DNA of 64,000 nucleotides from a virus: positions 1-64,000 of IMG/VR virus record IMGVR_UViG_3300007512_000009; one strand, 5' to 3'. Shown here piece by piece: positions 1 through 17,351 of this stretch; the stretch's first letter is position 1, and every line of letters begins with the position of its first letter. The notes below the pieces were generated by a model. That model saw only the letters and a list, made by a program, of their open reading frames with translations. It made no database searches and was not told the DNA's origin. The translations under genes and the position numbers were made by a program.

Positions 1-429
1 TTTAAACAATACTTAAGAGAAATAGACCTAAACCCAGAAGAACCACCGTTCGACCCAACGGAACTTCCAGGCTTTCCATACTTACCATATGACCCGATGG
101 TGCCACCAAATCCTTATATGCCGGCTCCTCTACCCGACCCGTCGCAACCTAACCTACCAACCACACCAGAGTACCCTGATTTACCAGAGTATCCTAATAA
201 TCCTTATTGGGACCCCGACCTATTCCCACAATGGCCCTTCCCACCAGAGTATGTTCCATCAGGGCGTTTGCCTGAACCACCGTGGATACCAAGCAGGAGA
301 GATAGTGATGGCGATGGTATTCCAGACTGGGACGACGTTGACCCTCTAGACCCTTTAAATCCTAGTTTAACACCAACAAACCCATTAGCCCCAGAATATG
401 ATGAAGATGAAGATAATGTTATCGTTTAA
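1..429 (+). CDS. Pro/Asp-rich low-complexity protein with capsid-targeting-like leader (5' partial)
   Basis: Frame 1 is open from base 1 (FKQYLREIDLNPEEPP...) into the 97..429 ORF, so the start lies just upstream of the window. Contains DSDGDGIPDWDDVDP, a Ca-binding-like loop. Confidence 0.75.
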   Translation, partial: FKQYLREIDLNPEEPPFDPTELPGFPYLPYDPMVPPNPYMPAPLPDPSQPNLPTTPEYPDLPEYPNNPYWDPDLFPQWPFPPEYVPSGRLPEPPWIPSRRDSDGDGIPDWDDVDPLDPLNPSLTPTNPLAPEYDEDEDNVIV

Positions 430-1168
430 GCAATACATCATAGAAGAGTTACCGACAAAGGAAATCAAAATTTCTGAGTTTCCTAATCCCCTATCTGCAC
501 GTCTAAAAGCAATCTTTCAAAAGAAGGGTGATATGGATGGTAGTCAGGGTGATGATGTGGTTAAAACCAAATCAAAAAGTTGGAAAGCAGGAAAACTTCG
601 CCCATCTCAATCAGCAATATATCTTGGTAAATCACTAGGAATGGCCGTTGGTGGTGTAAAAGGTGGAAATTTGGGTTCTATCGTTTCTAATGATAAACAC
701 ATTCTTGACGGTCATCACAGATGGGCAGCAACTATGCTATCAGAACCAACAGCAAAAATCGGAGGTATTGAAGCAAATCTAGGAATTGGTGATTTAGTTC
801 CTGTGCTTCGTGCGTTGGGTGATTCTATTGGTAATGCACGACGAGGTGAACCAACTGGTGGAGATATTAACATCTTTAAAGCAACAGTTAAAGATGCTAT
901 AGATGCTCTAACCACTGGTAAAAACATGGCCCCCCAGTTTTATAACAAAGAAAAATCACTTGCTTGGTTGGAATCAATTGGTGGAAAAGAAGGATTAGCA
1001 AAAAGACTTAAAGACCTACAAAGTCATAGACCACCAAAAGGTGCACCACCACGAATTGAAATGCCTGTTATTGATGCAGATAAAGGTGATGAGAAGTTAG
1101 CGGCTAAACTTCTAAGAAAAGGTAAACTGGATGTACGTGAACCGTATGCAAATGGGCAACAAGCATGA
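416..1168 (+). CDS. ParB/Sulfiredoxin-like domain protein with capsid-targeting-like leader
   Basis: Start moved to ATG at 416 (MLSFKQYIIEE). LRPSQ...IVSNDKHILDGHHRWAA matches the ParB/Srx DGHHR motif. Confidence 0.75.
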   Translation: MLSFKQYIIEELPTKEIKISEFPNPLSARLKAIFQKKGDMDGSQGDDVVKTKSKSWKAGKLRPSQSAIYLGKSLGMAVGGVKGGNLGSIVSNDKHILDGHHRWAATMLSEPTAKIGGIEANLGIGDLVPVLRALGDSIGNARRGEPTGGDINIFKATVKDAIDALTTGKNMAPQFYNKEKSLAWLESIGGKEGLAKRLKDLQSHRPPKGAPPRIEMPVIDADKGDEKLAAKLLRKGKLDVREPYANGQQA

Positions 1169-1911
1169 AATCATTCAAGCAATATCTTAAAGAATCGACA
1201 GTATTGATGGACTTAATCAATAAATACGATGACCCATTCAGTTTTCTTGCAGCCTCTATGGATGCTATTGCTAACGGTACTCTCAAACTAAAACAAAGAG
1301 GACTAGCAAACGCTCGTGAATTGATTGCCGCTTGGAATAAAGTAAAGAAAAGAAAAATCAAACTGAAAGAAGCAACCGAATACATCTTAGAAAGAAGACA
1401 AGATTTAGTAAAGGGTTGGACATTTAAAAACAAGATTGCTACATCCACCACCGACTATAACTATTATCACATCCAACATATAATTAAAGAACCTAAAAAA
1501 TTTGGTTTAGATAAAAAGAAAATATTAAAAATTATTGAAGATAGTGCTAAGAATATGAGTGTACCAAACATCGAAGCATATGTAGAAGACCAATACGAAT
1601 CCCTTGGGAATGGTATTGTGGACAATGATGTATACATCGAAGAATACCTGAAGAAAAAAGGTTATTGTATGTTTGTCGTTGATAAGACACACGGTAGTGT
1701 TGAAGGATGGGATGAAAAATCTTGCAAAATGGGTGCAAAGGCTGTAGACGATAATTACCTACCATACGAAAGAGATGGATTCAAGTTGTTTGAAATTAAA
1801 CCTGTAAAGGGTAGACCTAAATACATCACCAACAAACTAGACTGGAATGACTTCGTAGAAGGTAAAAAAGCAAAACGAAAGTATGTTTCACCAATGGCAC
1901 AATTCAGATGA
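1165..1911 (+). CDS. Hypothetical protein, putative head-internal protein
   Basis: 248 aa. Leader MKSFKQYLKE, second LKE site near aa 68, ATGA overlap with the upstream gene. Confidence 0.75.
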   Translation: MKSFKQYLKESTVLMDLINKYDDPFSFLAASMDAIANGTLKLKQRGLANARELIAAWNKVKKRKIKLKEATEYILERRQDLVKGWTFKNKIATSTTDYNYYHIQHIIKEPKKFGLDKKKILKIIEDSAKNMSVPNIEAYVEDQYESLGNGIVDNDVYIEEYLKKKGYCMFVVDKTHGSVEGWDEKSCKMGAKAVDDNYLPYERDGFKLFEIKPVKGRPKYITNKLDWNDFVEGKKAKRKYVSPMAQFR

Positions 1912-2357
1912 TTTCATTTAAACAATATGTCGTAGAGTTATTCGAAAAACCATACAAGTGGAAAAAGAAAAAAGATGATGATATAGAAGCAGTGTATCAA
2001 TCAGCAACAAGTTCGAAAGATATAATAAAGGTTATATTTTCAAAGGGGTGGTCAAGAGGAATTGATAACTTGTTATTTACAGTTGGCGGTGACACCGATA
2101 CCACTGGTGGTGGTGATGCATTCAGAATAATGTCAACCGTGTTGGATATTATTAAGGACTATATTAAAAACAATGACCCAGAAGGGATAAAGTTCGCCGC
2201 AAATAAGGACGAACTCTTTGGTCAAGACTCTGAAAAAACACAAAGTCGAGAGAAACTTTATAATAAAATGATTGAACGGTTTGCTAAAAAGGCAGGATAT
2301 AAGGTGCATGCGGATAAACATAAGTACGGTACACAGTATAAGTTGACCAAAAAATGA
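1908..2357 (+). CDS. Hypothetical protein, paralogue family A (GxGxA..STV...F.A...R.KLY)
   Basis: Leader MISFKQYVVELFEKPYKW. Motif GGGDAFRIMSTVLDIIKDY...SREKLYNKMIERF. Confidence 0.8.
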   Translation: MISFKQYVVELFEKPYKWKKKKDDDIEAVYQSATSSKDIIKVIFSKGWSRGIDNLLFTVGGDTDTTGGGDAFRIMSTVLDIIKDYIKNNDPEGIKFAANKDELFGQDSEKTQSREKLYNKMIERFAKKAGYKVHADKHKYGTQYKLTKK

Positions 2358-2824
2358 TTTCATTTAAGCAATACATCACAGAGTTATTCGACAATCCACT
2401 GAAATGGAAAGAGTTTATCAAATCACCGAGAGCAAGAAAAGCAGAGTTTCGTGTAGGTGACTTTGGATATATTATCACTATTGAAATAGGTGACAAAGGA
2501 ATAGCACAACGAATGGGCGAAAAAGTGGCAGCATCAATTGAGTTTGGACTTGCAGATGAAAAAGGTGTATCAAAAGACGGTAGACAAAATAAACACAAAA
2601 TCTTAAACACAGGCAATGCAGGTTTAGTATTCTCTACAGTCATTGATTATGCAAAATATGTTATCAAACAAGAAGGTATCGGTAAGGTCATATTCACTGG
2701 ATGGGAGCCGTCACGACAAAAGTTATATTGGAAGTTGATGAAACGATTTTCGGGAAGCATTTTTAAGGGTGGTGTCGAACGAAAAGGTTCACGGTTCGTT
2801 GGACATATAGACAAGATAAAATAA
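2354..2824 (+). CDS. Hypothetical protein, paralogue family A
   Basis: Leader MISFKQYITELFDNPLKW. Motif TGNAGLVFSTVIDYAKY...SRQKLYWKLMKRF. Confidence 0.8.
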   Translation: MISFKQYITELFDNPLKWKEFIKSPRARKAEFRVGDFGYIITIEIGDKGIAQRMGEKVAASIEFGLADEKGVSKDGRQNKHKILNTGNAGLVFSTVIDYAKYVIKQEGIGKVIFTGWEPSRQKLYWKLMKRFSGSIFKGGVERKGSRFVGHIDKIK

Positions 2825-3180
2825 TGAAATCATTTAAAGAATTTGTTAACGAACATTATGATGAATACGGTATTCCAATGGATGGTGGATTGAACCATGA
2901 CCATGATGGTATGGGACCACATAGTCATCCATGGGATGCACCGTTTGATTACGATAATTGGCCTCCATTAGAAGATTGGGAGAAGGAATGGGACCCAGAT
3001 GACCAAGACGGTGATGGGAAAAAAAATTGGGAAGACGATGATTATGTTCCACCAATTCCATGGGACGAAAACAATCCAGACCACCCAGATTATGTTCCTC
3101 CAGGCCCCGTTGGACCATTTTACCCAAACGCCCCTTTATACCCAAGCGACCCACCACAAGACCCACATTGGATAGTTTAA
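2824..3180 (+). CDS. Pro/Asp/Trp-rich peptide with capsid-targeting-like leader
   Basis: Leader MKSFKEFVNE. DQDGDGKKNWEDDD loop. Confidence 0.75.
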   Translation: MKSFKEFVNEHYDEYGIPMDGGLNHDHDGMGPHSHPWDAPFDYDNWPPLEDWEKEWDPDDQDGDGKKNWEDDDYVPPIPWDENNPDHPDYVPPGPVGPFYPNAPLYPSDPPQDPHWIV

Positions 3181-3181
3181 C

Positions 3182-3616
3182 ATGGGTTTATTTTCTTCAC
3201 CATCTGAAATCGACATACAGTATGAAAACGACACTGATATAAGAGGTACATTTAAAGCAGGTGATACCGACTATAAAGTGTGGGGTAGACACAACTACCT
3301 AATGAGCGGAACTAGTTTGGGTGAGAATGTGTGGGAAATGTTTTTCGCTATGTGTGAAGATGATGACAAAATTTATGGTTTGCATGACACCAAACCAAAC
3401 GGTGCAGGAAATGCAGCCAAGGTGTTTGCAACGGTGATTGAATTCATGAGATATGTAAATAAAAAACATCAACCAAGCGATTTTGTTTTCTCTGCAAAAG
3501 ATGAAAAGCAACAAAGAATATACCTAAAGTTGATTGAAAGATATCAAAAACTTGGGGAAATAAATAACATATCCACCTCTGAAAAAGGAAACATAATTAA
3601 ATTTGAAGTCGTTTAA
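3182..3616 (+). CDS. Hypothetical protein, paralogue family A (no leader)
   Basis: Motif GAGNAAKVFATVIEFMRY...FSAKDEKQQRIYLKLIERY. Confidence 0.75.
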   Translation: MGLFSSPSEIDIQYENDTDIRGTFKAGDTDYKVWGRHNYLMSGTSLGENVWEMFFAMCEDDDKIYGLHDTKPNGAGNAAKVFATVIEFMRYVNKKHQPSDFVFSAKDEKQQRIYLKLIERYQKLGEINNISTSEKGNIIKFEVV

Positions 3617-4805
3617 GCAATACATCTTAACAGAATCCAAAAATACACACCTAGAGCATCTTGAAGATGAAATCTGGAATGCGGGTTCTGCTGGCGCTGA
3701 CAACGCTATCAAATTTTTAAAAGGTGTATCAGACATGCTTACCAGCAATGTCAGTTCGTCCCACAATGTTACGGTTAAGTGGGATGGTGCACCTGCTATT
3801 ATTGCAGGAGTAAACCCAGAAAACAATAAATTCTTTGTTGGAACAAAAAGTGTATTTAATAAGGGTACACCAAAGATTAACTACACTAGTAGGGATGTTG
3901 ATAAAAACCACAGTGGTGACCTTGCTGTTAAGTTGAAAATTGCTCTAAATGAACTACCTAAAATTGGAATAAAGGGTGTGCTTCAGGGTGATTTTATGTT
4001 TGACTCCAGTAGTCTGGGTTCTATGAAAATGGACGGTAAAAGTCATACTACTTTCACACCCAACACCATAACTTACGCAGTGGAAGATGGTAGTCCTCAG
4101 TCTAAAGCAATTAAAGGTGCTAAAATGGGTATAGTATTTCACACTGAATACAAAGGTAAAATACTTGCTGACATGAAAGCATCATTCAGACCGAACATCA
4201 AAAAACTTAAAAAGACCAAAGCGGTATGGTTCAGAGATGCTGATTTTAAAGACGAAAGCGGTGCATCTACTTTAACTACTGGTGAAAAAAAATCTGTCGA
4301 TAAAGCAATCGAGAATGCATCTAGTAAACTAAGTAAGGCATCGGGATTTATTGATAACCTCCAAAGGGACATAACACCTAAAATAAAGACTTATGTAAAC
4401 AGTACGATTAAGAACGGTTTGTCCAATTCCGATTATAAAGGTTTCGTGTCTTATATAACTGACCAGTTTGACACAGCCATTAGTAAACTAAAGACAGACA
4501 GAGGCAAAGAGAATAAATCCAAAAATCGTGATGATGCTCTAAAATATCTTAAGACCAATAAATCGGGTCTTACCTCCCTGTTTGATTTACACAAATCATT
4601 GAGTGTAGCAAAAATGATGTTGATAAAAAAACTCGAAAAAATAGGTGGTATTGGTACATTTATTAGAACGGATGACGGATTCAAAGCAACAGCACCAGAG
4701 GGATTTGTGGCTGTTGATGATACAGGAAAAGCCTTAAAATTAGTGGATAGACTTGAATTTAGTCGGGCCAATTTTACGGTTGCAAAAAACTGGGTTAAGG
4801 GCTAA
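3603..4805 (+). CDS. ATP-dependent ligase-fold nucleotidyltransferase (RNA-ligase-like; resembles the DUF6267-type protein of marine T4-like phages)
   Basis: TTG start, leader MKSFKQYILTE. KNTHLEHLED N-terminus; motif I VKWDG, motif III LQGDF, motif IV EGFVA, motif V LKLVDR. Confidence 0.7.
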   Translation: MKSFKQYILTESKNTHLEHLEDEIWNAGSAGADNAIKFLKGVSDMLTSNVSSSHNVTVKWDGAPAIIAGVNPENNKFFVGTKSVFNKGTPKINYTSRDVDKNHSGDLAVKLKIALNELPKIGIKGVLQGDFMFDSSSLGSMKMDGKSHTTFTPNTITYAVEDGSPQSKAIKGAKMGIVFHTEYKGKILADMKASFRPNIKKLKKTKAVWFRDADFKDESGASTLTTGEKKSVDKAIENASSKLSKASGFIDNLQRDITPKIKTYVNSTIKNGLSNSDYKGFVSYITDQFDTAISKLKTDRGKENKSKNRDDALKYLKTNKSGLTSLFDLHKSLSVAKMMLIKKLEKIGGIGTFIRTDDGFKATAPEGFVAVDDTGKALKLVDRLEFSRANFTVAKNWVKG

Positions 4806-4811
4806 GACTGT

Positions 4812-4819
4812 TATAAATA
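4812..4819 (+). promoter_or_regulatory. T4-type late promoter TATAAATA
   Basis: Exact octamer in the intergenic gap upstream of the ORF at 4864. Confidence 0.75.
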
Positions 4820-4863
4820 TATTGAATTTTTATCTTTTACAAACAACAACGAGGGAAATAAAA

Positions 4864-5064
4864 ATGGCTAGTAAAGAATGGGTAAGGTTTAATGAAGACG
4901 CAAAAGCAAAACAACATAGAACAGTACATGTTGAAAAATATGGTGGTGAATTTGTCTATCGTGGTAACAGCAGAGGCTGGCACTGGGTAAACGGTACTTC
5001 AACACCAAAACCTGAAGTTGCATCATTTAGCAAAAAGAAAAAAACAACAACAAAGCAAAAATAA
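4864..5064 (+). CDS. Small basic hypothetical protein
   Basis: Start moved to ATG at 4864 behind a GAGG RBS. 66 aa, Lys-rich tail. Confidence 0.7.
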   Translation: MASKEWVRFNEDAKAKQHRTVHVEKYGGEFVYRGNSRGWHWVNGTSTPKPEVASFSKKKKTTTKQK

Positions 5065-5405
5065 TGAGCAATAGGGTTGATTATCTTAGAGAACGTGTGA
5101 TACGTAACATTATTGATAATGTTGTATTAAGCGAGGCGCCCGGCTCACCTGCTGTTGGTGGCGATGGTGGTGGTGGTACTAAATCAGGCGGCGGTGACAG
5201 TTATTTTACTGGAGGAGTTGCTGGGATGGAATTGGATAATGTTTTCTTTCCAACGGCAGATGTTATGAAACAAAAAATACAACAACCACAGTTTAATAAA
5301 GCACAACAATTATGGTTTATGAATAACTGGCAAAAATTACCACGTAATATCCAAGCACAAATGTTAAATTTATTAAAAAAGAAGAAGAAAAGATATGAAT
5401 ATTAA
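5064..5405 (+). CDS. Hypothetical protein
   Basis: 113 aa, coupled to its neighbours. Leader ends VVLSE, followed by a Gly-rich linker. Confidence 0.7.
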   Translation: MSNRVDYLRERVIRNIIDNVVLSEAPGSPAVGGDGGGGTKSGGGDSYFTGGVAGMELDNVFFPTADVMKQKIQQPQFNKAQQLWFMNNWQKLPRNIQAQMLNLLKKKKKRYEY

Positions 5406-6327
5406 TTTTGAACAGTTTGACCCACTTGATAGAAAATCAAAGTCTACCATTATTAATGAGCAAAGAAAAAGAATGCCTAGAGGTGATATGCTTCAAAAGA
5501 TTATGAGTATGATAAACCAAGGTAAAAAAAAGAAAAGAGGCCCGCAACCTCAGGGAGCAGAACGCTCTATGATGCCTGGTGGTATGGATGACCTTGGTGG
5601 ATTGATGGGTATGATGCAAGGTCAGCAAAAACCTGGCCAAATGCCCCCAGAGATGGATATGTGGGATGCTTACTCTGGTAAAAAACAAAAATTCATGACA
5701 AAAAATGCTGAAGAAGGAAAGCCTGGACTAGAATCTTCAAGAGATATTAATGGTAACATCATGAAAGGTTACATGGATGCAGCCGCCTCAATGAGAATTT
5801 CACAACCCTCTGGTGGTAATGACCCAACTAAATTTAATGTTCCTCATGGGTCGGGTAGTGACCCAAGGATGGTTCGTGGATTATCACCAGAAGATTTACC
5901 ATTACAAATGGATTATAAACAATTAGACCAAATAAAGAAACCGTCATTAGAAGCAGGAATGAAAGACCCTCAGGTTGCCGCACCACATCAAACGCCTGGC
6001 GCACCTGTTGATATTCCAGATGGTATGGGTGGTACTGACCAACAAAAATCGCAAGCAATGAAAGGGGCCGCATTCTTTGGTGGTAAACCAGAAATGCCTG
6101 AACCACAACAAGGTGGAATGCCTGGCGGTGGTGGTGACATGGGTAGCATGATGCAACAAATGATGGGTGGTGGTCAACCTCAAGGTGGTGGTCAACCTCA
6201 AGGAATGCCTCCAATGCCGAAGATGGGTGGAAAAGAAGGTCAAGCACCAGACATGATACAAAAACTAATGTCAGACCCAAAAATCAAAAAATTTTTGCAA
6301 AAATTAATGCAAGGTATGAAAAAATAA
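5395..6327 (+). CDS. Gly/Met/Gln/Pro-rich, probably disordered protein
   Basis: 310 aa, low complexity. Includes an 18-bp duplication (GGGQPQ x2) at 6166-6201. Confidence 0.75.
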   Translation: MNINFEQFDPLDRKSKSTIINEQRKRMPRGDMLQKIMSMINQGKKKKRGPQPQGAERSMMPGGMDDLGGLMGMMQGQQKPGQMPPEMDMWDAYSGKKQKFMTKNAEEGKPGLESSRDINGNIMKGYMDAAASMRISQPSGGNDPTKFNVPHGSGSDPRMVRGLSPEDLPLQMDYKQLDQIKKPSLEAGMKDPQVAAPHQTPGAPVDIPDGMGGTDQQKSQAMKGAAFFGGKPEMPEPQQGGMPGGGGDMGSMMQQMMGGGQPQGGGQPQGMPPMPKMGGKEGQAPDMIQKLMSDPKIKKFLQKLMQGMKK

Positions 6328-6328
6328 A

Positions 6329-6853
6329 ATGTCACTACAGAATAAAATATATCTACAAAGAATAATTCAGAATCTAAATGAGGCGAATTGGTTATCACCC
6401 ACCCCACCCCAACAGTCACCATGGCCACCAGAAACACCAGCCGAAGAAAACCCTTTTCAAGAATATTGGCCATTAAGACCACCCAAAAAAGTACCACATA
6501 GACCCGATTTTACCCCACATGATGAAATTCCAGGCGGGGCTGGTGGTGGAATGTCAGAAAAACAATTATTAAAACTTATCTGGTGGTTAATACATCAAAA
6601 GACTAGTTTGCTGGATGATAATTTTCTGGGTAGATTGTATTTAGGTCTACCAGAACCACCTAGTGATGCATGTAGGGCTGACCCCGTTTGTTATCAAGAA
6701 TACCTTGATGCATTATGGGCTTGGTTAGAAGATGCACTAGGTGACGCATTACAGGACTATTGGGATGAATATCAAGACTGGCTTGAAGACCATCCAGGCA
6801 GTAGTTTTTGGGATTGGTTACTCGCAATAGATTGGGGTCAGATGTTCTACTAA
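6329..6853 (+). CDS. Pro/Trp-rich hypothetical protein with leader type 2
   Basis: Leader MSLQNKIYLQRIIQNLNE, shared with the ORF at 15035. Confidence 0.75.
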   Translation: MSLQNKIYLQRIIQNLNEANWLSPTPPQQSPWPPETPAEENPFQEYWPLRPPKKVPHRPDFTPHDEIPGGAGGGMSEKQLLKLIWWLIHQKTSLLDDNFLGRLYLGLPEPPSDACRADPVCYQEYLDALWAWLEDALGDALQDYWDEYQDWLEDHPGSSFWDWLLAIDWGQMFY

Positions 6854-7254
6854 TGTCTGACCATAATAAAGAAATACGAAATTTAACGGAATCCGTTAAT
6901 AACCTATATGAACAAGGTGGATGGCCTGGTGGTAGCGGTCAAATTGGAAGGTCTTTATGGCATTTGTTTTTATGGTGGCAATTCCAGAGGCGGATGCAAA
7001 AAATACTTGATGGAGGCGGGCTTAAGGGCTGGGCTCTTCGTATCTTCATGATGGGCTGTGACATGGGATGTTTATTTCAGATGTGGTTAGATGCAGGACA
7101 ACCTAGCAACTTTGAAGAATGGTTAGAAAGCCTAACGAATCCTTCTGATGATGATGATGTTACCCCTGATGACGGTGGTGGTGGTGGAACTGATACTAAA
7201 CCCCCACCCCCCATAGAATATCCAAAGAATTGGCCACCACCAATGCGGGCATAA
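6853..7254 (+). CDS. Trp/Gly/Pro-rich hypothetical protein
   Basis: Start moved to ATG at 6853 (TAATG overlap). Leader MSDHNKEIRNLTESVNNLYE. Confidence 0.7.
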   Translation: MSDHNKEIRNLTESVNNLYEQGGWPGGSGQIGRSLWHLFLWWQFQRRMQKILDGGGLKGWALRIFMMGCDMGCLFQMWLDAGQPSNFEEWLESLTNPSDDDDVTPDDGGGGGTDTKPPPPIEYPKNWPPPMRA

Positions 7255-7262
7255 TATAAATA
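7255..7262 (+). promoter_or_regulatory. T4-type late promoter TATAAATA
   Basis: Exact octamer directly after the stop codon at 7254. Confidence 0.7.
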
Positions 7263-7281
7263 ATAATAAAGGAGAAACGTT

Positions 7282-7425
7282 ATGATAGAAACAACAACAA
7301 TGTTAGCAAGTGCAGAAGGTTTTGTAGGAACTATTTGGTTCACAGCCTTGGTATTCATTGCGGGCGCATTTATTGGTGCACCAATGTGGAACTGGGTTAA
7401 AGCAAAATTCCCTTGGAATCAATAA
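7282..7425 (+). CDS. 47-aa single-pass membrane peptide (not in ORF track)
   Basis: AAGGAG RBS. MIETTTMLASAEGFVGTIWFTALVFIAGAFIGAPMWNWVKAKFPWNQ. Confidence 0.7.
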   Translation: MIETTTMLASAEGFVGTIWFTALVFIAGAFIGAPMWNWVKAKFPWNQ

Positions 7426-7438
7426 TAAGTAAAAATAG

Positions 7439-9574
7439 ATGGATTCATCAGATTTTATTAAGCAGTATATCCTCAATGAAAAACGTGATAAAGGGATAGT
7501 TTTTACCTTTGGTAGATTCAGTCCACCTCATGTAGGTCATGAATTATTAATTAATAAAGTCTTAAAAGTTGCTAAGCAACATAAGTTTGAACATGGAATT
7601 TATGCGAGTAAATCCCATGACAAAACAAGAAACCCTTTAAAATACAAAGACAAAATAGCATTCATGAAAAAAGCATTCAAGAATGCTAATGTTATTAACG
7701 ACCCTAAATTAATAAATCCGTTTTTTGTTGCAAAAAAACTCAGCGACAACGGATACAAACATGTAATCTTAGTTGTTGGTGGTGATAGAGTAGATGAAAT
7801 GGATAAAAACATTAGACCATACATCAACCACTCAGACCCAAATAAATCTTTCAACTTCGAAACTTTCAAAGTGGTAAGTGCGGGTCGACGTGACCCAGAC
7901 TCAAGTGATGTATCTGGTATGTCTGCATCTAAAATGAGAGCAACGGCAGCCGATGGAGATTTTGAAACTTTCAAATCTGGTGTTCCATCTGGAATGTCTG
8001 ATAAAGATGCACAAAAAATGTATAATACCATAAGGAAAGAAATGGGTATAAGAGAAGAAATAGAATCATTTTTTGATAGCATAGAATTGTTAGGTATCTC
8101 AGAGGAGAAATTAGTAAATCTAGCAAGAGAAAGACTATCAGAAGATGCTTTAAACTACATGAACCTTAACGAACAATCAGAAGATTCAAAACCAACCTTG
8201 GTTGTACTTTCAAAATACAGTGATAAAGACGACCAGAGTAATACAATAGAAAAAGTGGAAAAATCTGCAGATGAAATGGGTATCGATTTTTATTCAATAT
8301 CAGTAGACGATGCTTATATTGTAGACGAAGACATGTCTGACAATGAATTGGTTATCCATAATTATGATGGTAAAAACAATAAAATAACTATCGATACTGA
8401 AAACACGGTATGTTGGCCACGTGGTGGTGTATTAACAAATTTTTCTGGTGTTGGTTTATTAAGTGTGTTACAAGATTCAGACATATTTTGTGTTAATAAA
8501 CTGAGCAATATGGAATTGGCTAGAAACAAATATGCTACTGCGATGCTCCTAGAGAGGGAACAAATCTCATCACCCAGAACAGCACTAGTTTCTAGTGAAG
8601 AAGCAATTGATATAGCATTGGAAAAAATAGGTGGTGAATTCCCTGTCGTATTAAAAACTCTAACTGGTGCTGAGGGTATTGGTGTTTCTATTGTAGAATC
8701 GTATGAATCACTGGTAAGTGTATTACAATCTTTATGGAAATTTGATGCTGAAGTGATTATGCAGGAATATTTTGAGATTGAACACGATATAAGAACAATT
8801 GTTCTAGACAATGATATTATTGCCAGCATAAAAAGAGTAAAAGGCAGTAAAGATTTTAGAACCAATAAATCATTGGGCAATGACACAGAGTTGTACGAAC
8901 TTTCTGAAAAAGAGAAGTCATTAATATTAAAAACAGCAAAAGCATCTGGTTGTTATCTTTGTGGTGTAGACCATATAACTGTCGGTGAAGATGACCACAA
9001 AATCTTAGAGGTCAATGGTTCGCCCGGCAGCGGTGCTGACAAATATACAATTTATTTTGGTGATGAAGAATCGGGTGACGGTAAAATGGTCATTGATTAT
9101 ATAGTTGAATATATCACTGATAAAGACAACTGGAAATATTCTTCTAGAGAAATCGGTATGATAGAGCAAGTTGAAATTGAAGGTATTGGTACTCTTAATG
9201 CTAGAGCAGACACTGGAAACACTGGTCTTAACTCATTACATGCTGAGGATATTACAGTTGAAGATGGAAACGTTACATTTACCACAGAATTCGGTAAAAG
9301 TATAACTCTACCTCTTGATGATACCTCTAAAATAAGAATAGACAATGACCTAGAAAAAAGACCTGTTGTATTGTTTAATATCAAAATGGGTAAGAAGTCC
9401 TATAAAGATGTGCCGTTTACACTAAACGATAGAGATGGTATGGACTACTCGGTATTGCTTGGTCAAGATTTCTTAAAAAGAGCAAATTTTTCTGTTAATG
9501 TCAAAAAGAAATATGAACTGTCAGAGGATGAAAAAAAGATTTTAAATATTAAATTTAACCTTCTTGAGGCATAA
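7439..9574 (+). CDS. Triple fusion: HxGH cytidylyl/nucleotidyltransferase + RimK-type ATP-grasp ligase + RimK-associated retropepsin-like protease
   Basis: GRFSPPHVGHELL and MSASKMR (nucleotidyltransferase); ARNKY, PVVLKTLTGAEGIGV, QEY, DIR, LEVNGSPG (ATP-grasp); ARADTG...RPVV...FTLNDR...VLLG (aspartic protease). Confidence 0.85.
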   Translation: MDSSDFIKQYILNEKRDKGIVFTFGRFSPPHVGHELLINKVLKVAKQHKFEHGIYASKSHDKTRNPLKYKDKIAFMKKAFKNANVINDPKLINPFFVAKKLSDNGYKHVILVVGGDRVDEMDKNIRPYINHSDPNKSFNFETFKVVSAGRRDPDSSDVSGMSASKMRATAADGDFETFKSGVPSGMSDKDAQKMYNTIRKEMGIREEIESFFDSIELLGISEEKLVNLARERLSEDALNYMNLNEQSEDSKPTLVVLSKYSDKDDQSNTIEKVEKSADEMGIDFYSISVDDAYIVDEDMSDNELVIHNYDGKNNKITIDTENTVCWPRGGVLTNFSGVGLLSVLQDSDIFCVNKLSNMELARNKYATAMLLEREQISSPRTALVSSEEAIDIALEKIGGEFPVVLKTLTGAEGIGVSIVESYESLVSVLQSLWKFDAEVIMQEYFEIEHDIRTIVLDNDIIASIKRVKGSKDFRTNKSLGNDTELYELSEKEKSLILKTAKASGCYLCGVDHITVGEDDHKILEVNGSPGSGADKYTIYFGDEESGDGKMVIDYIVEYITDKDNWKYSSREIGMIEQVEIEGIGTLNARADTGNTGLNSLHAEDITVEDGNVTFTTEFGKSITLPLDDTSKIRIDNDLEKRPVVLFNIKMGKKSYKDVPFTLNDRDGMDYSVLLGQDFLKRANFSVNVKKKYELSEDEKKILNIKFNLLEA

Positions 9575-9589
9575 ATATAAAGGTTAAAT

Positions 9590-9597
9590 TATAAATA
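9590..9597 (+). promoter_or_regulatory. T4-type late promoter TATAAATA
   Basis: Exact octamer upstream of 9622, followed by an AGAGGA RBS. Confidence 0.75.
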
Positions 9598-9621
9598 CAT
9601 GAAAAGAGGATTATCACTACC

Positions 9622-10131
9622 ATGAAAACATATAAACAACTAATTGAGTCTATAGTGTCCGCACTACCCAGAACGTATACTGGTCATGTTCAGGATGGTC
9701 CCACTAATTCTGACACAGATGGGAATTTTCAAGATATCGAAAACCCAGAAATTGCAGATAGAATTAATGCAGCCCTAGCACACCTAAATAGACTTCCCAC
9801 TTCTAATCCTAAACAAAGAATTTCAGAGATAAAAGTGGCACTCAGTCATGCGGGTGTAGACTTTGACCACACTAGTGTAGGTATTAATGAAGGTGAAATG
9901 TTTGAAGTGCCAGCAAAAAGATGGGGCGGAAGACTAGGAATGGACGAAGATGGGAACTGGATAGATGATGATGGATTTGGAAATAATCCTCATGTTATCC
10001 AATTCGAATGGACTAGAAATGACCACATGTGGCACCTTGATGCAACGATGAAACCTGCTGTGTTGGGTGAGCAGTGGGAGTATGACCCAATAGATGACGA
10101 AGGAGAACCCAATTGGGATTACTGGAATTAA
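9622..10131 (+). CDS. Hypothetical protein with capsid-targeting-like leader
   Basis: Leader MKTYKQLIE, close to T4 IPII/III MKTYQEFIAE. Confidence 0.75.
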   Translation: MKTYKQLIESIVSALPRTYTGHVQDGPTNSDTDGNFQDIENPEIADRINAALAHLNRLPTSNPKQRISEIKVALSHAGVDFDHTSVGINEGEMFEVPAKRWGGRLGMDEDGNWIDDDGFGNNPHVIQFEWTRNDHMWHLDATMKPAVLGEQWEYDPIDDEGEPNWDYWN

Positions 10132-10171
10132 ACCTAAAGGGTATATTATAAAGTGAATTTTTTTGATTATT

Positions 10172-10570
10172 ATGACAACAAAATTTGATAGATTGACTAA
10201 CAAAAACTATGTAATGTATGCAATGAAGCACTATAATAATCCTCAGTGCTTAGATATTGAAGAATTTTATAGTGATTTAAATAGAATAAAATACCTAAAG
10301 AGATTGTTTAGACGGTATTTGACATCGGGTGAGTTAAAAGAACGACTGGTTCTTAATCACTTAATCATCCTTTATAACGTATTCGGAATTGTGCCCACAA
10401 CTAGAATGTTATTCTATAGAATGGAGAAAGAATTCCATCCGATTTTAAAAACATGTATAGTTTACTTAAACATGTTACCAGAAGATAAAAATGCGGACAA
10501 AGTACATGAGGTAGATTTGTTAGTGATACCATTAGATAATAAAGTAATAAAGATATTAAGGGAAGTATAA
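10172..10570 (+). CDS. Conserved T4-like phage hypothetical protein
   Basis: YAMKHYNNPQC...DLNRIKYLKRL...LKERLVLNHLIILYNVFG, a pattern typical of T4-like phages. Confidence 0.8.
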   Translation: MTTKFDRLTNKNYVMYAMKHYNNPQCLDIEEFYSDLNRIKYLKRLFRRYLTSGELKERLVLNHLIILYNVFGIVPTTRMLFYRMEKEFHPILKTCIVYLNMLPEDKNADKVHEVDLLVIPLDNKVIKILREV

Positions 10571-10574
10571 CACA

Positions 10575-11150
10575 ATGGTAGCGATATTTGACACATTTGT
10601 TGCTTACAAATTCATTAAAATCTTGACTACACCGTGGGAAAAAACAGACGCATTTAAACTCGGATTGATTGACAAAAAGGGTAATCCTCTTGTTAAACGT
10701 TCTAAGTTGAAAACCGATAAACAAAAGAAAGCATACACCATCGTTCATGTTCTAGTTTGGAACATAAAAAGATTATTAGATAAAATACCAATGACCCGCA
10801 CAAAACTGGGTTCGTTTGCTACTGCACTATGGTTACTTAAAGACAAAAAAGTAATTAAAAAGAAAGATACAGTAGAGAGTGTCTTTCTTGAATATACTGG
10901 TTTAAAACTAAAAAAGAAAAACATTATGGAATCATATCTAGATGGTGATAACCAAATAAAGGCTGGTATTTACATGTCTAGAAACACACTTCCTGAATTA
11001 TATGACTTTATAGATAATAAGGATACTATCATAGTTGAGCAGGAAACCCCTGAGGGTGAAATGTTAGGTGTTTTTATTTTTTCAGGTATCCATAAGAAAA
11101 CAGGTAATAAGGTGGTATTTTCAAATGAAGACGTTCTCAGAATTAGTTGA
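10575..11150 (+). CDS. Conserved T4-like phage hypothetical protein
   Basis: AYKFIKILTTPWEKTDAFKLGLIDKKG N-terminal pattern. Confidence 0.75.
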   Translation: MVAIFDTFVAYKFIKILTTPWEKTDAFKLGLIDKKGNPLVKRSKLKTDKQKKAYTIVHVLVWNIKRLLDKIPMTRTKLGSFATALWLLKDKKVIKKKDTVESVFLEYTGLKLKKKNIMESYLDGDNQIKAGIYMSRNTLPELYDFIDNKDTIIVEQETPEGEMLGVFIFSGIHKKTGNKVVFSNEDVLRIS

Positions 11151-14100
11151 TAGTTTAAATGAAGATATAATATCCGAAGCAGTACCTGCTATGTCTTCTG
11201 GTAAGTCCGTAGCATCTTCTATGACCAATGCCACTGTTTCAAACCAAACGGCATACGCAGCCAAACCTATGGGTTGGAACAGATTAATAACAAGAGATGG
11301 TAGGGTAACTGCACCAACTACAAAGAAAGATTTTGTAAGAAACCTAATATCAATTATCGGTCAAGAAGAAGCAGAAAAATACCACAACGAATTTAAAGAA
11401 TATGTAGATTTGTTATGGGGTAAACGTGCTCAAGGTCATAGCGATTTGATGATTGACGTTGAAAAATCATTTGATAAATCAAACAGACCATACACTGAAT
11501 TTGAATTTACCACCACTGACGTTGAAAACATGAGGGATGGTCAAGGTGGTTATAGAGATGATGGTCAAGGTGGTTACGATGATGGTCGACAACCGACAAT
11601 GGATATCCAAGGTGGCGGTTACGATGGGCCTCTTATTGAACCACCAGATTGGACTGGGATATTTCCAACTACTGATGTATGTGCAAACCCGCCCTGTGGT
11701 CCACAGGATAGACCAATCCCACCACACAAACCATTTACAATAGGTCATGAAGGGGAAGTCGAAGATATACCACCACACACTGGGGCTTGTGAGTTCCCAC
11801 CTTGTTATGTAGACACTGGTGGTGACATCAACGTACAAACTCAAGACCCAAACCTAGGAATTGGGGATAGTGGAGAAGATGACCCTGACCCAATAGATAC
11901 CTCAAGTGTTGGTGGTGGTGACACAGTAATACCACCAACCATAGACGTTCAGACACAATCTGGAGATTCTAGTATAACACCAAGCGGTACTATTGACCCA
12001 ACAGACGATAATCTTTACATCGGTGGTGGTGATACCGACCCCGTCGACCCTGACGATGATTTTGAACTAAAAGGTAAAAAGAAAAAATGGTCAAATTATA
12101 ATGCATTTTTAAATGCTATGGGGTGGGATAAAAAATATGCAGTACAAGAAAAGTACACTTTAAATGATTTTCGTAGCAACAGTTTAAGTGAAGCAGAAAC
12201 GTTGCACTGGAATACCTTAGACGATGCTGAGAAAAAAGATTTCGCTAAACACGCTAAAATGAATGCTAATATTGTTTTGAAAAAGTCTTGGAAACAACTA
12301 AAATCTTCTGAGAAGAAAAAGTTAGCACAGATGATTAAGAAAACAACTGGTGGTGAGTTTGCTCTTGAAGAAGAACTCACACCTTCCCAAGCAAAGAAGA
12401 AAGAAGAAATCGTTCTTTCATTGAAGAAAAAGAAGAAAGAATTTCAAGAACGATATGGTAATGACTGGGAAAGTGTGATGCATGCGACTGCTACTAAGAT
12501 GGCAAAGAAAAATGAATCCATTAATGAAGACGACAATACCATAGGGATGGAACAATTAACTGCGTTGTTGGGTAGATGGGGTTCATCAGTTGTTCCAGGC
12601 ACGCCCCCTGATTACGACGGAGATGGCGTTGTGAACATGGCAGACATTTTGTGGCTTCTTGACCACTGGGGAGAAGATATTATAATTGGTTTCAATGGTG
12701 ATGACCAAGAAACACCACAGTTGGGTCTTGCACCATCTATTAAAAACAATGGTAACAAGGGTATATTGTCACGTGGTTTATTTGGTGAATCTATGTTGAG
12801 AGAAAGACCTACACCTCCCACACCTACCAAATATCCACAATCACCATATCCACCAAGACCACCTGACCCCATACTTCCAGGCGATGTTGTACCTGTGTCA
12901 CCAGATGGTGAACCATGGGACATCGAGGAAGCAATCGTTCGTGGTGATAGAAGCGGTGGAATGCCAACAGGTGCAGACCGTGGTAGTGATGAAAAACCAT
13001 TAATGAAGTGGTTGACTGAACTAGAAAGAGAACTAAAGAAAATGCGTTCTTCTTATGATAACGTAGATGCAGATGTTGCTATTTGGTTATATGGTAAGGG
13101 ACGTTCAGCAAAACAAACTGCAAAAGTCCTTGCTACCAGAAAAGAATCCGTTGAACTGGGTGAAGCAAAGATTTCCAGAAACCCTCAACTAAAAATCGGA
13201 CTCCATAAAGGAATCTCCGTTGGTAAGGGTAAAAAAGTCATCCTATCTAAAGGAATAAAGGGTAAAGGATGGACTCTAAATGCGGGTGACGAAGTAATTG
13301 CTTATCCGTATGATGGTGACAGGGTTGCAATACTCAATCCCAATAACGCTTGGGAGTTTGTAGCAAAACGACACATCAAAGGTGGATTTAGAGAATCCGC
13401 TAACGAAGCAGTAGATGAAGCAAAAGACAAACAAGGACATGTTACATTTGAGTTTAAATCACTTGCAGATTCATCAAAATTTGAAAAAGAGTTGAGAATT
13501 CTTAAACGAAAATTTAGTAAAATGTTCAATACCAAGTTATCTGGAAAAGAAGTGACCATACTTTTTGATAAAAGGTTTAGTACAAAAGATGAAGAATTCA
13601 GCACAAAAGATGTAGATATGGTTAGGGTTTTACAGCAAAAGCATAAAGGAAATCTATTAGATTGGTCTGGTAAAAACCCATTCGGTGTTGACACCAGACT
13701 ATTGAAAAAATCTGCATCAGACCTACGAAAAGAATCCGTAGATGCAACACGTTTTGTACGTGCACATGGTAAAACACCACGTGGTTCGGGAACTTGGTTC
13801 TTTACAATCCATCGAGGCGGTATTGAATTCGATAAGCATAAAGAAGGTAAAGATTATGTTAAAATCAAAGATACTTATTATACAGCCGCTGCCAAGAAAG
13901 CAGAAAAAATGCTTAAAAGTAAAAAACTATTTGTTGCTGAATCTGTAATTGTTAATGAAGAACTTGACCTAAGAGCATTTATTGAAAAAATCAAAAAAGC
14001 CTTTAAGATGAGGGATTTCGATAAAAGTGAACGAGCAAGAGCAAAAAGGATAAAAAAAGCAAACAGACAGTATAGTAAACTTTTAGGTCTACATGCTTCT

Positions 14101-14838
14101 TTTGACCCACTTGCTGAAGCAACCGTTTCTGAAGCACGAACGAAAGATGCTATCTTGGTTGTGCTCGATTCAATTGAAAAACTATCTAAGAAACACAAAT
14201 CAACCGTTGACAACATAGTTAAAGATACCAAACTTAAAAAAGATTTTGTGCAAGATGCAGTAGAATTTTGGTTGGACGATAAGAAAATCAAAAAGATGGG
14301 GTCTGGAAGGAATACCCATTACATGCCAGAATCTAACAGATATAGTCTTAGTGATTTTTTTGAATCAGTAGAAGAAGAAACTCCTGCTACAAACACAGCA
14401 GGTGTTGCTCATACTGGTGATGACCCAAGAGTTGGGATTAAAAAGAAAAAGAAGAAAAAGAAGAAAGGTGAATTATCCCCTAGAGGTATGACGATGATGA
14501 TGGATAATGCACAAGAAATTGGTGAATCCCTTGAACGTTCACTTCGTAGTTTAGCAACAAGTGATGAAACACCAAGATTTAGAAATGAATATTGTGGTCA
14601 TCCTGTTTTCAAGGTGAGCGAAGGTGAATTTGGTAAATGCAAAACTAGACGAGCAAAGGGTGAACGATGGAACAAATTCTTTGAGGATGATTCACCAAAT
14701 TATGGTGTTATTAGAAAATACTCAAGACGAAATCCAAATAAACCAATTGTTATTCAGAATGAACTAAATGGTGAAATGTCGATTTATCGTCGCAGAATGA
14801 ATGACCAACGACTAAAGCACAATAGAAGGATGAAATAA
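11125..14838 (+). CDS. Large mosaic putative head-internal polyprotein
   Basis: Start moved to ATG at 11125 (MKTFSELVDSLNE). Modules are separated by E-rich linkers. Contains a dockerin-like motif and a C-terminal GHPVFKV...RWNKF...IRKY...NPNKPIVIQNE..GEM domain of T4-like type. Confidence 0.8.
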   Translation: MKTFSELVDSLNEDIISEAVPAMSSGKSVASSMTNATVSNQTAYAAKPMGWNRLITRDGRVTAPTTKKDFVRNLISIIGQEEAEKYHNEFKEYVDLLWGKRAQGHSDLMIDVEKSFDKSNRPYTEFEFTTTDVENMRDGQGGYRDDGQGGYDDGRQPTMDIQGGGYDGPLIEPPDWTGIFPTTDVCANPPCGPQDRPIPPHKPFTIGHEGEVEDIPPHTGACEFPPCYVDTGGDINVQTQDPNLGIGDSGEDDPDPIDTSSVGGGDTVIPPTIDVQTQSGDSSITPSGTIDPTDDNLYIGGGDTDPVDPDDDFELKGKKKKWSNYNAFLNAMGWDKKYAVQEKYTLNDFRSNSLSEAETLHWNTLDDAEKKDFAKHAKMNANIVLKKSWKQLKSSEKKKLAQMIKKTTGGEFALEEELTPSQAKKKEEIVLSLKKKKKEFQERYGNDWESVMHATATKMAKKNESINEDDNTIGMEQLTALLGRWGSSVVPGTPPDYDGDGVVNMADILWLLDHWGEDIIIGFNGDDQETPQLGLAPSIKNNGNKGILSRGLFGESMLRERPTPPTPTKYPQSPYPPRPPDPILPGDVVPVSPDGEPWDIEEAIVRGDRSGGMPTGADRGSDEKPLMKWLTELERELKKMRSSYDNVDADVAIWLYGKGRSAKQTAKVLATRKESVELGEAKISRNPQLKIGLHKGISVGKGKKVILSKGIKGKGWTLNAGDEVIAYPYDGDRVAILNPNNAWEFVAKRHIKGGFRESANEAVDEAKDKQGHVTFEFKSLADSSKFEKELRILKRKFSKMFNTKLSGKEVTILFDKRFSTKDEEFSTKDVDMVRVLQQKHKGNLLDWSGKNPFGVDTRLLKKSASDLRKESVDATRFVRAHGKTPRGSGTWFFTIHRGGIEFDKHKEGKDYVKIKDTYYTAAAKKAEKMLKSKKLFVAESVIVNEELDLRAFIEKIKKAFKMRDFDKSERARAKRIKKANRQYSKLLGLHASFDPLAEATVSEARTKDAILVVLDSIEKLSKKHKSTVDNIVKDTKLKKDFVQDAVEFWLDDKKIKKMGSGRNTHYMPESNRYSLSDFFESVEEETPATNTAGVAHTGDDPRVGIKKKKKKKKKGELSPRGMTMMMDNAQEIGESLERSLRSLATSDETPRFRNEYCGHPVFKVSEGEFGKCKTRRAKGERWNKFFEDDSPNYGVIRKYSRRNPNKPIVIQNELNGEMSIYRRRMNDQRLKHNRRMK

Positions 14839-14839
14839 G

Positions 14840-15034
14840 ATGGGTATTTTTAAAGATAAATGGGCAGAGAACCTGATGAGGTCTAAAAAAGAACAAGCCA
14901 GTGAACCTTCGGAAGGTCTTGGTGATACAGTTAAGAAAATTACTAATGCTATGGGTATAAAACCTTGCGACGAGTGTGAGGAGAGAAGGAAAAGTCTTAA
15001 TAAGAAATTCCCATTTAAAAGGAAGAACAAATAA
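14840..15034 (+). CDS. Small CxxC protein
   Basis: GLGDTVKKITNAMGIKPCDECEERRKSLNKKFP. Confidence 0.7.
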   Translation: MGIFKDKWAENLMRSKKEQASEPSEGLGDTVKKITNAMGIKPCDECEERRKSLNKKFPFKRKNK

Positions 15035-15364
15035 GTGTCTTTACAAAACAAAATATATCTACAGAGAATACAACAAACCATTAAAGAACAATCCGCACAC
15101 GGCCATGAAGGACAATCTTGTGAGGAAGCACATCCAGACATGTCACATGAGGAGTGGGAAGCAACCCACGATGACCATGAAGGGTGTTCAACCTGTGGAG
15201 AATCCGTTATTACTGAAGAACAATTAACTGAAGCATTAATGGTTTTAAGTGAAGATAAAAAAGAAGTATGGAATCCATTTCCAGAGAGTTGGTGGAAACC
15301 TGAGCCTAAAGAAGAACCGACACTTGGTAGTCCAATGAAACCATTACATAAGTACAAAGTATGA
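15035..15364 (+). CDS. His/Cys-rich hypothetical protein with leader type 2
   Basis: GTG start. Leader MSLQNKIYLQRIQQTIKE, then HGHEGQSCEEAHP...CSTC. Confidence 0.7.
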   Translation: MSLQNKIYLQRIQQTIKEQSAHGHEGQSCEEAHPDMSHEEWEATHDDHEGCSTCGESVITEEQLTEALMVLSEDKKEVWNPFPESWWKPEPKEEPTLGSPMKPLHKYKV

Positions 15365-15657
15365 CTTTACAAAACAGACAATATTATAATAACATCCACG
15401 GTCTTAAAGAGGCTAGAGAGAAAACGCTTACTGTACTGTTTAAAACAGACGAGCAGATGATGGAACGGATATATGAAAGAGATTTGAAACGTGAGTTTAA
15501 GAAACTTTATAAGTCTACTAACTATGTAAAAAAGGGAAACTTCCGAGGTTTTGAGGTTGTATTCAAAGGTGAAGTAAAAGAACTAGTAAAAGTAACGAAA
15601 TACATTGAGAAATTGGACAGGAAAAATAAAATCTACGATAGCAAGGTGTTTTCATGA
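15361..15657 (+). CDS. Hypothetical protein with leader type 2 variant
   Basis: Leader MTLQNRQYYNNIHGLKE. ATGA overlaps on both sides. Confidence 0.7.
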   Translation: MTLQNRQYYNNIHGLKEAREKTLTVLFKTDEQMMERIYERDLKREFKKLYKSTNYVKKGNFRGFEVVFKGEVKELVKVTKYIEKLDRKNKIYDSKVFS

Positions 15658-15905
15658 AATCGTTTAAAGAATATCTAGAACTAAAAGAACATGACCCATG
15701 GAATTATCCAAACATTGACCACGACACATATCATGACTGGCTAAATTCATTGTCGTGGTGGGACAGACTTTTTGGAGTCCCTGGCCCTGAATACATGCCC
15801 AAAGGTTGGAGAAAACCAGTACCAGTACCACCAACACCATCAAAACCTGCCGACCCAATGAACCCTACAGACCCTTCAAACCCCATGCGTCGAGAAACAT
15901 ACTGA
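15654..15905 (+). CDS. Pro/Trp-rich peptide with capsid-targeting-like leader
   Basis: Leader MKSFKEYLE. Confidence 0.75.
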   Translation: MKSFKEYLELKEHDPWNYPNIDHDTYHDWLNSLSWWDRLFGVPGPEYMPKGWRKPVPVPPTPSKPADPMNPTDPSNPMRRETY

Positions 15906-16952: not shown

Positions 16953-17351
16953 ATGAAACCGAACAATTTTAGAAGTCTAAGCGAATCAGCGAGAAAGGTA
17001 TTAAATAGAGAATACACATGTTCTCCTACTAAAGAGCAGTTACAATCACTTATCACTGAGCAAGGTACAACCATGCCTGGCGAGGCAGCAATTCAATCAA
17101 TCATGAGCAACTGGGGTAATAATAACTGTGGTGGCCCATGGTGTGGAGATTTTAATGGTGATGGAGTTGTTGATGTACAAGACTTGCTATGGGTTCTTCA
17201 CAATTGGGGAGATTTTGGTCCTCAAGGCGCTCAAGCACCTGCACCTACTTTGACTACACAACGACCATCACAACGACCAACAACTGGAGGAGTCATGCGT
17301 CCCCCATCACAACGACCACAACGAAGCAATTTTGGGATTCGGAAGACGTAG
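16953..17351 (+). CDS. Dockerin-like/EF-hand motif protein with leader type 3
   Basis: Leader MKPNNFRSLSESARKVL. IMSNWG...CGDFNGDGVVDVQDLLWVLHNWG. Confidence 0.75.
   Translation: MKPNNFRSLSESARKVLNREYTCSPTKEQLQSLITEQGTTMPGEAAIQSIMSNWGNNNCGGPWCGDFNGDGVVDVQDLLWVLHNWGDFGPQGAQAPAPTLTTQRPSQRPTTGGVMRPPSQRPQRSNFGIRKT

Follow-up and report, generated by a model that had tools for sequence, protein, structure and literature searches.

The capsid-targeting sequence (CTS) of bacteriophage T4 is MKTYQEFIAE. Leaders of this type comprise about 10 residues in the internal proteins (IPs) IPII and IPIII and 19 residues in IPI; the T4 gp21-type protease cleaves after Glu, and the T4 proteins tagged with the CTS (IPI–III) are injected. 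Suppressor mutagenesis of IPIII assigned targeting mainly to residues 4 and 7, and processing to residues 8 and 10 (PMC9026906). Ip1–3 of T4 are anti-restriction proteins, and the IP loci of T-even phages are hyperplastic: the genes, identified by their signal sequence, differ between related phages, and conserved sequences are located at the cassette borders (PMC2839356, PMC12373910). T4 Alt and the ejection proteins of the phiKZ/SPN3US type are packaged in the head as well, have propeptides cut after Glu by a gp21-related protease, and are delivered with the DNA (PMC5694885, PMC7411985). It is already established for T4-type coliphages that a CTS heads unrelated proteins, that IP loci vary, and that the cargo can include enzymes such as Alt. 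Here, an array of leader-bearing genes is described at positions 1–15,905 of the window. This window is taken from a linear virus contig of 126,210 bp in IMG/VR (record IMGVR_UViG_3300007512_000009), of which it covers the first 64 kb; the estimated completeness of the contig is approximately 70%. With a probability of roughly 75%, the leader is a capsid-targeting peptide and the array serves a marine T4-like myovirus as its locus for internal proteins (head cargo). On this reading, the T4 internal-protein system extends to a different lineage, where its cargo is expanded and rich in enzymes.

The array shares several features with the T4 IPs. Its leader is an N-terminal peptide of about 10 residues with aromatic or hydrophobic residues at positions 4 and 7, I/L/V at position 8, and Glu at position 10, followed by a small residue. 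It stands on unrelated bodies, and both a gp21-type protease and a gp22-type scaffold are encoded on the contig. The genes, which do not belong to the core set, are clustered and vary from one relative to the next; compared with the closest relative (L003), the gene content differs. There are also differences from T4. The consensus is MKSFKQYIxE instead of the T4 sequence; at least 11 tagged genes lie in one 16-kb block, whereas T4 has three in two loci; the cargo includes 42–137-kDa enzyme-like proteins and acidic proline-rich proteins, not just small basic ones; a second leader type is found within the array; and this phage is uncultured. The polymorphic IP loci of T-even phages are likewise hyperplastic, with signal-sequence genes varying between relatives, but their junction elements are promoter and stem-loop sequences, whereas the mapped junctions here are the 30 nt coding for the leader, and the lineage here is marine and Kyanoviridae-like. 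Enzymes and large proteins as putative head cargo recall Alt and the phiKZ/SPN3US-type ejection proteins, whose propeptides are, however, longer and not uniform, while in the present array many cassettes share one short leader. A previous sequence-only reading described the locus as going far beyond the three small IPs of T4, which gives too little credit to what has been described: the enzyme Alt is packaged by T4 as well, and more than 30 IP variants are known across T4-type phages (PMC2839356, PMC12373910). Literature searches, made mostly without subscription journals and therefore no proof of novelty, found nothing on a CTS or internal proteins in cyanophages or pelagiphages, on the leader string, or on DUF6267, a family represented in the array.

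All eleven N-termini that the sequence-only reading listed as leader-bearing were found on the plus strand, at positions 1, 416, 1165, 1908, 2354, 2824, 3603, 7439, 9622, 11125, and 15654 (genes are named below by their start, e.g., g416). Nine carry the canonical leader, including the 5′-truncated open reading frame (ORF) at position 1 and g3603, which has a TTG start; g7439 and g11125 are the other two. The canonical leader consists of M, K/I/L, S/T, F/Y, K, Q/E, Y/F/L, I/L/V, one or two further residues, and Glu at residue 9–11; its consensus is M-K-S-F-K-Q-Y-I-x-E, then a small residue. About 2,830 candidate starts on the 126-kb contig were compared with a regular expression broad enough to include the T4 sequence, and nine matched. 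Each of the nine is a true gene start lying in the first 16 kb, and no true gene start in the remaining 110 kb gave a match. In 80 related loci (0.98 Mb), the same pattern gave 77 matches on the gene strand versus 3 on the opposite strand. A looser pattern added only antisense or internal sites on the contig. Because the first tagged gene is cut by the contig end, further members of the array may lie upstream. A megablast search of the 16-kb region against 50,697 phage records gave no match. The nearest isolates of the DUF6267 gene of the region are T4-like marine myoviruses with approximately 40–45% amino-acid identity, namely Pelagibacter phage HTVC008M, Methylophilales phage Melnitz, and many Synechococcus/Prochlorococcus Kyanoviridae.

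At the positions mapped in the T4 CTS, the leaders have an aromatic residue at position 4 (F/Y), Y/F/L at position 7, I/L/V at position 8, and Glu at position 10. Among 86 leaders from this contig and the 80 related contigs, residues that the pattern had left free are also strongly preferred: E10 occurs in 75, K5 in 74, and K2 in 59, and the commonest residue 11 is Ala. The contig has a T4-type head module at 68.7–76.0 kb, comprising a portal (phrog_213), a maturation protease (phrog_207), a scaffold (phrog_237), and a major head protein (phrog_138). The gp21-type prohead protease matches PF03420 with an E-value of 7.5e-44. One of the looser-pattern matches is a conserved internal segment of the scaffold protein, M-x-G-L-K-x-L-F-E-x-H-Y, found at contig positions 74060–74130 (L095 ~5461) and in S-CREM2 at 118002; a possible explanation is that the CTS mimics either a site of the protease or a contact of the scaffold with itself.

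The leader is conserved as a peptide. In 71 distinct leaders, the Ser3 codon is TCN in 41 and AGY in 16, third codon positions vary freely, and nucleotide conservation is at background by positions −1 and +31; thus, selection acts on the ten-residue peptide, which is retained across genomes ranging from 37% to 48% G+C. When the leader is removed, the tagged ORFs of the 80 related contigs fall into at least 32 families unrelated by BLAST. The claim that the leaders of the array sit on otherwise unrelated bodies stands for most genes; the exceptions are g1908, g2354, and the leaderless gene at 3182, which are paralogues with weak DUF6934-like matches. The g416 family has 380 homologues, and in a sample of 24 sequences the leader was recognizable down to approximately 55% identity. 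Most DUF6267 proteins of this clade have the leader at their head, while the cyanophage DUF6267 proteins of S-SM1 and Syn9 have none. Similarly, some cytidylyltransferase homologues carry the canonical leader and others start directly at the catalytic domain. In the AlphaFold2 (AF2) model of DUF6267, residues 1–15 are disordered, and the leader forms a tail ahead of the folded domain. Several leader genes are also present in cultured relatives, so laboratory test systems exist. The syntenic locus of Melnitz EXVC044M (L096 11917–23370) contains about six, including a cytidylyltransferase and DUF6267, and that of HTVC008M (L002 10938–23597) has four or five weaker ones.

Virion proteomes of two cultured relatives provide data that are indirect and few, yet independent of this sequence analysis. 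Mass spectrometry of S-CREM2 detected 52 virion proteins (PMC10665884, Table 3). The S-CREM2 genome was assembled from four pieces and scanned for the leader, which begins six annotated genes. Five of these were detected in the virion (the S-adenosylmethionine (SAM) hydrolase, the APH-like kinase, the cytidylyltransferase, gp13, and gp136), against a background of 52 out of 219 genes (Fisher p = 0.003; p = 0.0002 with annotated structural proteins set aside). These five are the “non-structural” proteins that the authors could not tell from contaminants. A narrow DNA pattern for leaders of the MK type had a single match in each of the S-SM1 and Syn9 genomes, at the start of the cytidylyltransferase. 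The S-SM1 cytidylyltransferase is present in virions with 25 peptide counts, and three nearby genes of the same locus were also detected there (PMC3037559, Table S8). The virion “non-structural” proteins of S-CREM2 and S-SM1 thus resemble the present array in their syntenic region, cytidylyltransferase family, and leader type; the two papers report detection only and leave true packaging open. Neither of them (PMC10665884, PMC3037559) mentions the leader. The S-SCSM2R virion paper added nothing relevant. Identification of the virion-detected cyanophage core protein T4-GC15 with DUF6267 was dropped, as the S-SM1 record has DUF6267 as T4-GC71. A separate observation concerns S-CREM2 gp12 (OR473000, 10313–7704, minus strand), a virion-detected “Cas9-like” protein with a leader-like ..RFASFMAE about 17–26 residues past the annotated start, which may itself be placed wrongly; alternatively, the leader may be an internal one.

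The capsid-targeting reading was favored by every computational test, i.e., the match to the mapped CTS positions, the head machinery, the conservation of the peptide on at least 32 bodies, and the virion mass spectrometry in two relatives. By analogy with T4, each tagged gene would encode an N-terminal capsid-targeting peptide of about 10 residues, which would dock the protein on the gp22-type scaffolding core during prohead assembly. The gp21-type prohead protease would cleave after Glu in an I/L/V-x-E site, and the mature protein would remain in the head with the DNA and probably exit with it at infection. The cargo would be mixed, with basic proteins (the ligase-fold DUF6267, a ParB/Srx-fold protein, and two DUF6934-like paralogues), acidic proline-rich proteins, a 78-kDa NMNAT-like/RimK/protease fusion, and a 137-kDa protein. 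The 30-nt leader-coding stretch would mark the sites where relatives differ by gain, loss, or replacement of cassettes. Docking, cleavage after Glu, and injection are inferred, as is any role of the cargo in the host.

Several points weigh against this proposal. Packaging, cleavage, and injection in this particular phage are predictions. The proteomic test covers six genes in one phage and one gene in another, and the S-CREM2 authors noted that abundant non-structural proteins could co-purify with virions (PMC10665884). Several virion-detected neighbors in S-SM1 and S-CREM2 have no clear leader; hence, either the leader is not the sole route into the particle or the starts of these genes are mis-annotated. 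Two of the eleven leaders are atypical. That of g7439 is not at the extreme N-terminus, since three residues precede it (it starts at residue 4), and it contains one inserted residue; in g11125, Glu is at residue 13. The fold assignments described below have modest scores, the ligase fold reaching Z = 8.9 and the ParB/Srx fold Z = 3.9. In addition, some low-complexity cargo could be scaffold-like core material that is degraded rather than delivered.

This last point leads to the strongest alternative, in which the leader does target the head core, but most tagged proteins are parts of the scaffold or core, acting in assembly or DNA condensation, and are degraded or retained instead of serving as host effectors. 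In T4, gp22, gp67, and gp68 likewise become part of the core and are then cleaved into fragments, several array proteins are low-complexity, proline-rich, or G/M/Q-rich, and the scaffold proteins of both this contig and S-CREM2 have the internal leader-like segment. Against this stand the enzymes of the array (ligase fold, NMNAT-like/RimK/protease, and ParB/Srx fold), for which no assembly role is obvious, the persistence of homologues or analogues in mature S-CREM2 and S-SM1 virions as detectable peptides, and the injection of the T4 proteins tagged in the same manner. A mainly structural role of the cargo is, on balance, unlikely.

Mature products of 9–137 kDa are predicted; five are basic (isoelectric point (pI) 9.3–10), and four are acidic and proline-rich or Asp-rich. 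The product of g3603 (3603–4805) is a DUF6267 protein (Pfam E-value of 1.6e-119). In an alignment of 28 sequences, K59, D61, and G62 of the motif K59-x-D61-G62 are invariant, and the protein also has E-G and a Lys near the C-terminus. The AF2 model (pLDDT of 83.6) gave its best structural matches with RNA/DNA ligases in an all-against-all structural aligner (VIA): Naegleria RNA ligase (PDB 5cot; Z = 8.9, 182 aligned residues, root-mean-square deviation of 3.8), REL1 (PDB 1xdn; Z = 7.8), T4 Rnl2 (PDB 2hvq; Z = 7.4), and Rnl1 (PDB 9do4; Z = 7.0). Both motif I and the modeled fold place g3603 in the ATP-dependent RNA/DNA ligase (covalent nucleotidyltransferase) superfamily, so that it is predicted to have a ligase-type nucleotidyltransferase fold. 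The product of g416 (416–1168) contains the invariant motif ILDGHHRWAAT, in which D98, G99, H100, H101, and R102 (the DGHHR box) are invariant among the aligned homologues. The ParB N-terminal-domain fold is marked by a conserved box for nucleotide binding, of the Gly-x-x-Arg type. The AF2 model of the g416 product (pLDDT of 89.7) tentatively suggests a ParB/Srx fold: all eight VIA chains at Z ≥ 2 have this fold, with a weak best score of Z = 3.9 over approximately 84 residues, and the ParB matches in Foldseek are also weak (E = 0.04–0.5). Consistent fold families came only from VIA; Foldseek against the PDB gave no significant match for the DUF6267 or g416 model, and PDB sequence searches with g3603, g416, and g1165 gave nothing usable. 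The g1165 product (1165–1911) is a basic 27.6-kDa protein with no family match, and a protein atlas search for it gave no lead.

The 78-kDa fusion g7439 (7439–9574), with its offset and degenerate leader, combines an HxGH cytidylyltransferase/NMNAT-like domain, a RimK-type ATP-grasp domain, and a retropepsin-like “Zn_protease” domain, as judged from Pfam and PHROG matches. The presence of ATP-grasp and protease domains within the array raises the idea that the leader is not a capsid address but a recognition tag for this RimK-type ligase and its attached protease, as in the precursors of ribosomally synthesized and post-translationally modified peptides (RiPPs). This is very improbable, because S-CREM2 has leader-bearing virion proteins but was matched only by residues 8–209 of the fusion, i.e., its nucleotidyltransferase part (at E 1e-3), the tagged bodies are not peptides but folded proteins that reach 1237 residues, the fusion itself bears the leader, and the motif follows the mapped T4 CTS positions.

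The sequence-only reading also suggested that leader DNA could act as a homology for cassette swapping, a suggestion supported by comparison with L003, the single genome pair in which the junctions were mapped. L003 shows 70–85% nucleotide identity in the shared genes. The common backbone consists of g416, g1165, DUF6267, a small conserved gene, the fusion enzyme, g9622, DUF7207, a gene of 191 residues, and g11125, and the cassettes between these genes differ. BLASTN gave homologous blocks at 422–1194, 1165–1916, 1940–2383, and 3609–5014 of the window. The block ends 1194 and 2383 are each the last base of a 30-nt leader, the block start 1165 is the first base of a leader, and the block start 3609 lies six bases into the DUF6267 leader. 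At two junctions, the aligned sequences remain homologous across the whole leader and cease to be so exactly where its 3′ end lies. An L003-specific cassette has a leader copy on either side, and these two copies agree at 26 of 30 positions. At 7517–9301 of L003, bodies similar to those of g1165 and g1908 are fused in a single ORF of 594 residues, whereas window positions 1165–2357 contain two genes with a leader between them. This breakpoint pattern is the expected signature of leaders serving as recombination junctions and supports such a role.

The coincidence of breakpoints with the leader, together with the tight coupling of the genes by ATGA overlaps, would also fit a shared start that is only a nucleic-acid element (translational coupling, a downstream box, or a recombination site) encoding a peptide without sorting function. 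This is hardly credible given the conservation at the amino-acid level, with mixed TCN and AGY codons for Ser3 and free third positions, the retention of the peptide despite differing G+C content, and the virion association, which it leaves unexplained.

The capsid-targeting reading has wider consequences. T4-like myoviruses that infect cyanobacteria, SAR11, and OM43 rank with the most abundant marine viruses. Should the leader function as it does in T4, sequence alone would suffice to list the proteins that these phages package and probably inject. Such a role would explain why a cytidylyltransferase, a kinase, and a SAM hydrolase recur in cyanophage virion proteomes, and DUF6267, present in hundreds of marine phage genomes, would become, with its neighbors, a set of candidate early-acting or anti-defense enzymes. 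A practical use of the leader could be to direct foreign proteins into the heads of marine phages. A further proposal, speculative and itself rather doubtful, is that the array forms a “first-minute” kit of injected enzymes, among them the ligase-fold protein, the NMNAT-like/RimK/protease fusion, and the ParB/Srx-fold protein, that would repair or pre-empt damage by host defenses (cleaved RNA, loss of NAD+, and restriction) before phage genes are expressed, the 30 nt of the leader doubling as an integron-like cassette junction that would turn any captured gene into an injected effector.

A second leader type is present within the array. The genes at 6329 and 15035 have 14 of their first 20 residues in common (MSLQNKIYLQRI..), ending in L/I-x-E, while their bodies are otherwise unlike. 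This leader (MSLQNKIYLQRI.Q..xE) is about 18 residues long and is encoded at 6329–6382, 15035–15088, and, as a divergent copy in the gene at 15361, 15361–15411; the two downstream genes (MSLQNKIYLQRI..xE and the divergent copy) occupy 15035–15657. A weak L003 homologue of the 6329 body bears the standard leader instead, and the pattern used for the second type gave no match in the 80 related loci. By analogy with the long leader of T4 IPI, it may be a longer targeting peptide.

The sequence-only reading proposed ATGA-coupled junctions and late promoters. ATGA or TAATG overlaps are indeed real at 1165, 1908, 2354, 2824, and 15654; the late-promoter-like sequence TATAAATA is present in exact form, but in just three copies in the region (4812–4819, 7255–7262, and 9590–9597), all in intergenic gaps on the plus strand, which is the gene strand. 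The array therefore looks like a few late operons and not like one promoter per gene. The third copy is located 24 nt upstream of g9622.

The remaining genes of the array are also on the plus strand. The truncated first ORF (1–429; ..FKQYLRE), inside which the contig begins, encodes an acidic protein with 29% proline and a DSDGDG motif. Genes g1908 (1908–2357) and g2354 (2354–2824) are the tagged DUF6934-like paralogues, and g2824 (2824–3180) encodes an acidic, proline-rich protein with a DQDGDG motif. Downstream of DUF6267, five genes without the canonical leader (at 4864, 5064, 5395, 6329, and 6853) occupy 4864–7254; they are mostly of low complexity and rich in G/M/Q/P or W/D. Gene g9622 (9622–10131; MKTYKQLIE) encodes an acidic 18-kDa protein and is followed by two conserved leaderless backbone genes, DUF7207 and that of the 191-residue protein (10172–11150). 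The largest tagged gene, g11125 (11125–14838; MKTFSELVDSLNE), encodes 1237 residues, whereas its counterparts at the same position in relatives have just 109–417 residues. The array ends with g15654 (15654–15905; MKSFKEYLE), encoding a proline-rich protein of 83 residues.

Some minor observations concern individual genes. An A-rich run at 14438–14460 encodes about 10 lysines near the C-terminus of the 1237-residue protein and could be a hotspot of slippage or assembly error. The same protein has a dockerin/EF-hand-like motif, D-G-D-G-V-V-x-x-x-D-L/I-L-W-x-L-x-x-W-G, at approximately residue 520, and this motif recurs in a leaderless 132-residue protein encoded downstream at 16953–17351. Shorter D-x-D-G-D-G motifs are present in the acidic proline-rich tagged proteins encoded at 1–429 and 2824–3180. 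Finally, the leaderless paralogue of g1908 and g2354 (3182–3616) is acidic with a pI of 5.4, whereas the tagged copies are basic with pI values of 9.4–10.0; it could be an unpackaged partner of these proteins or a copy that has lost its tag.

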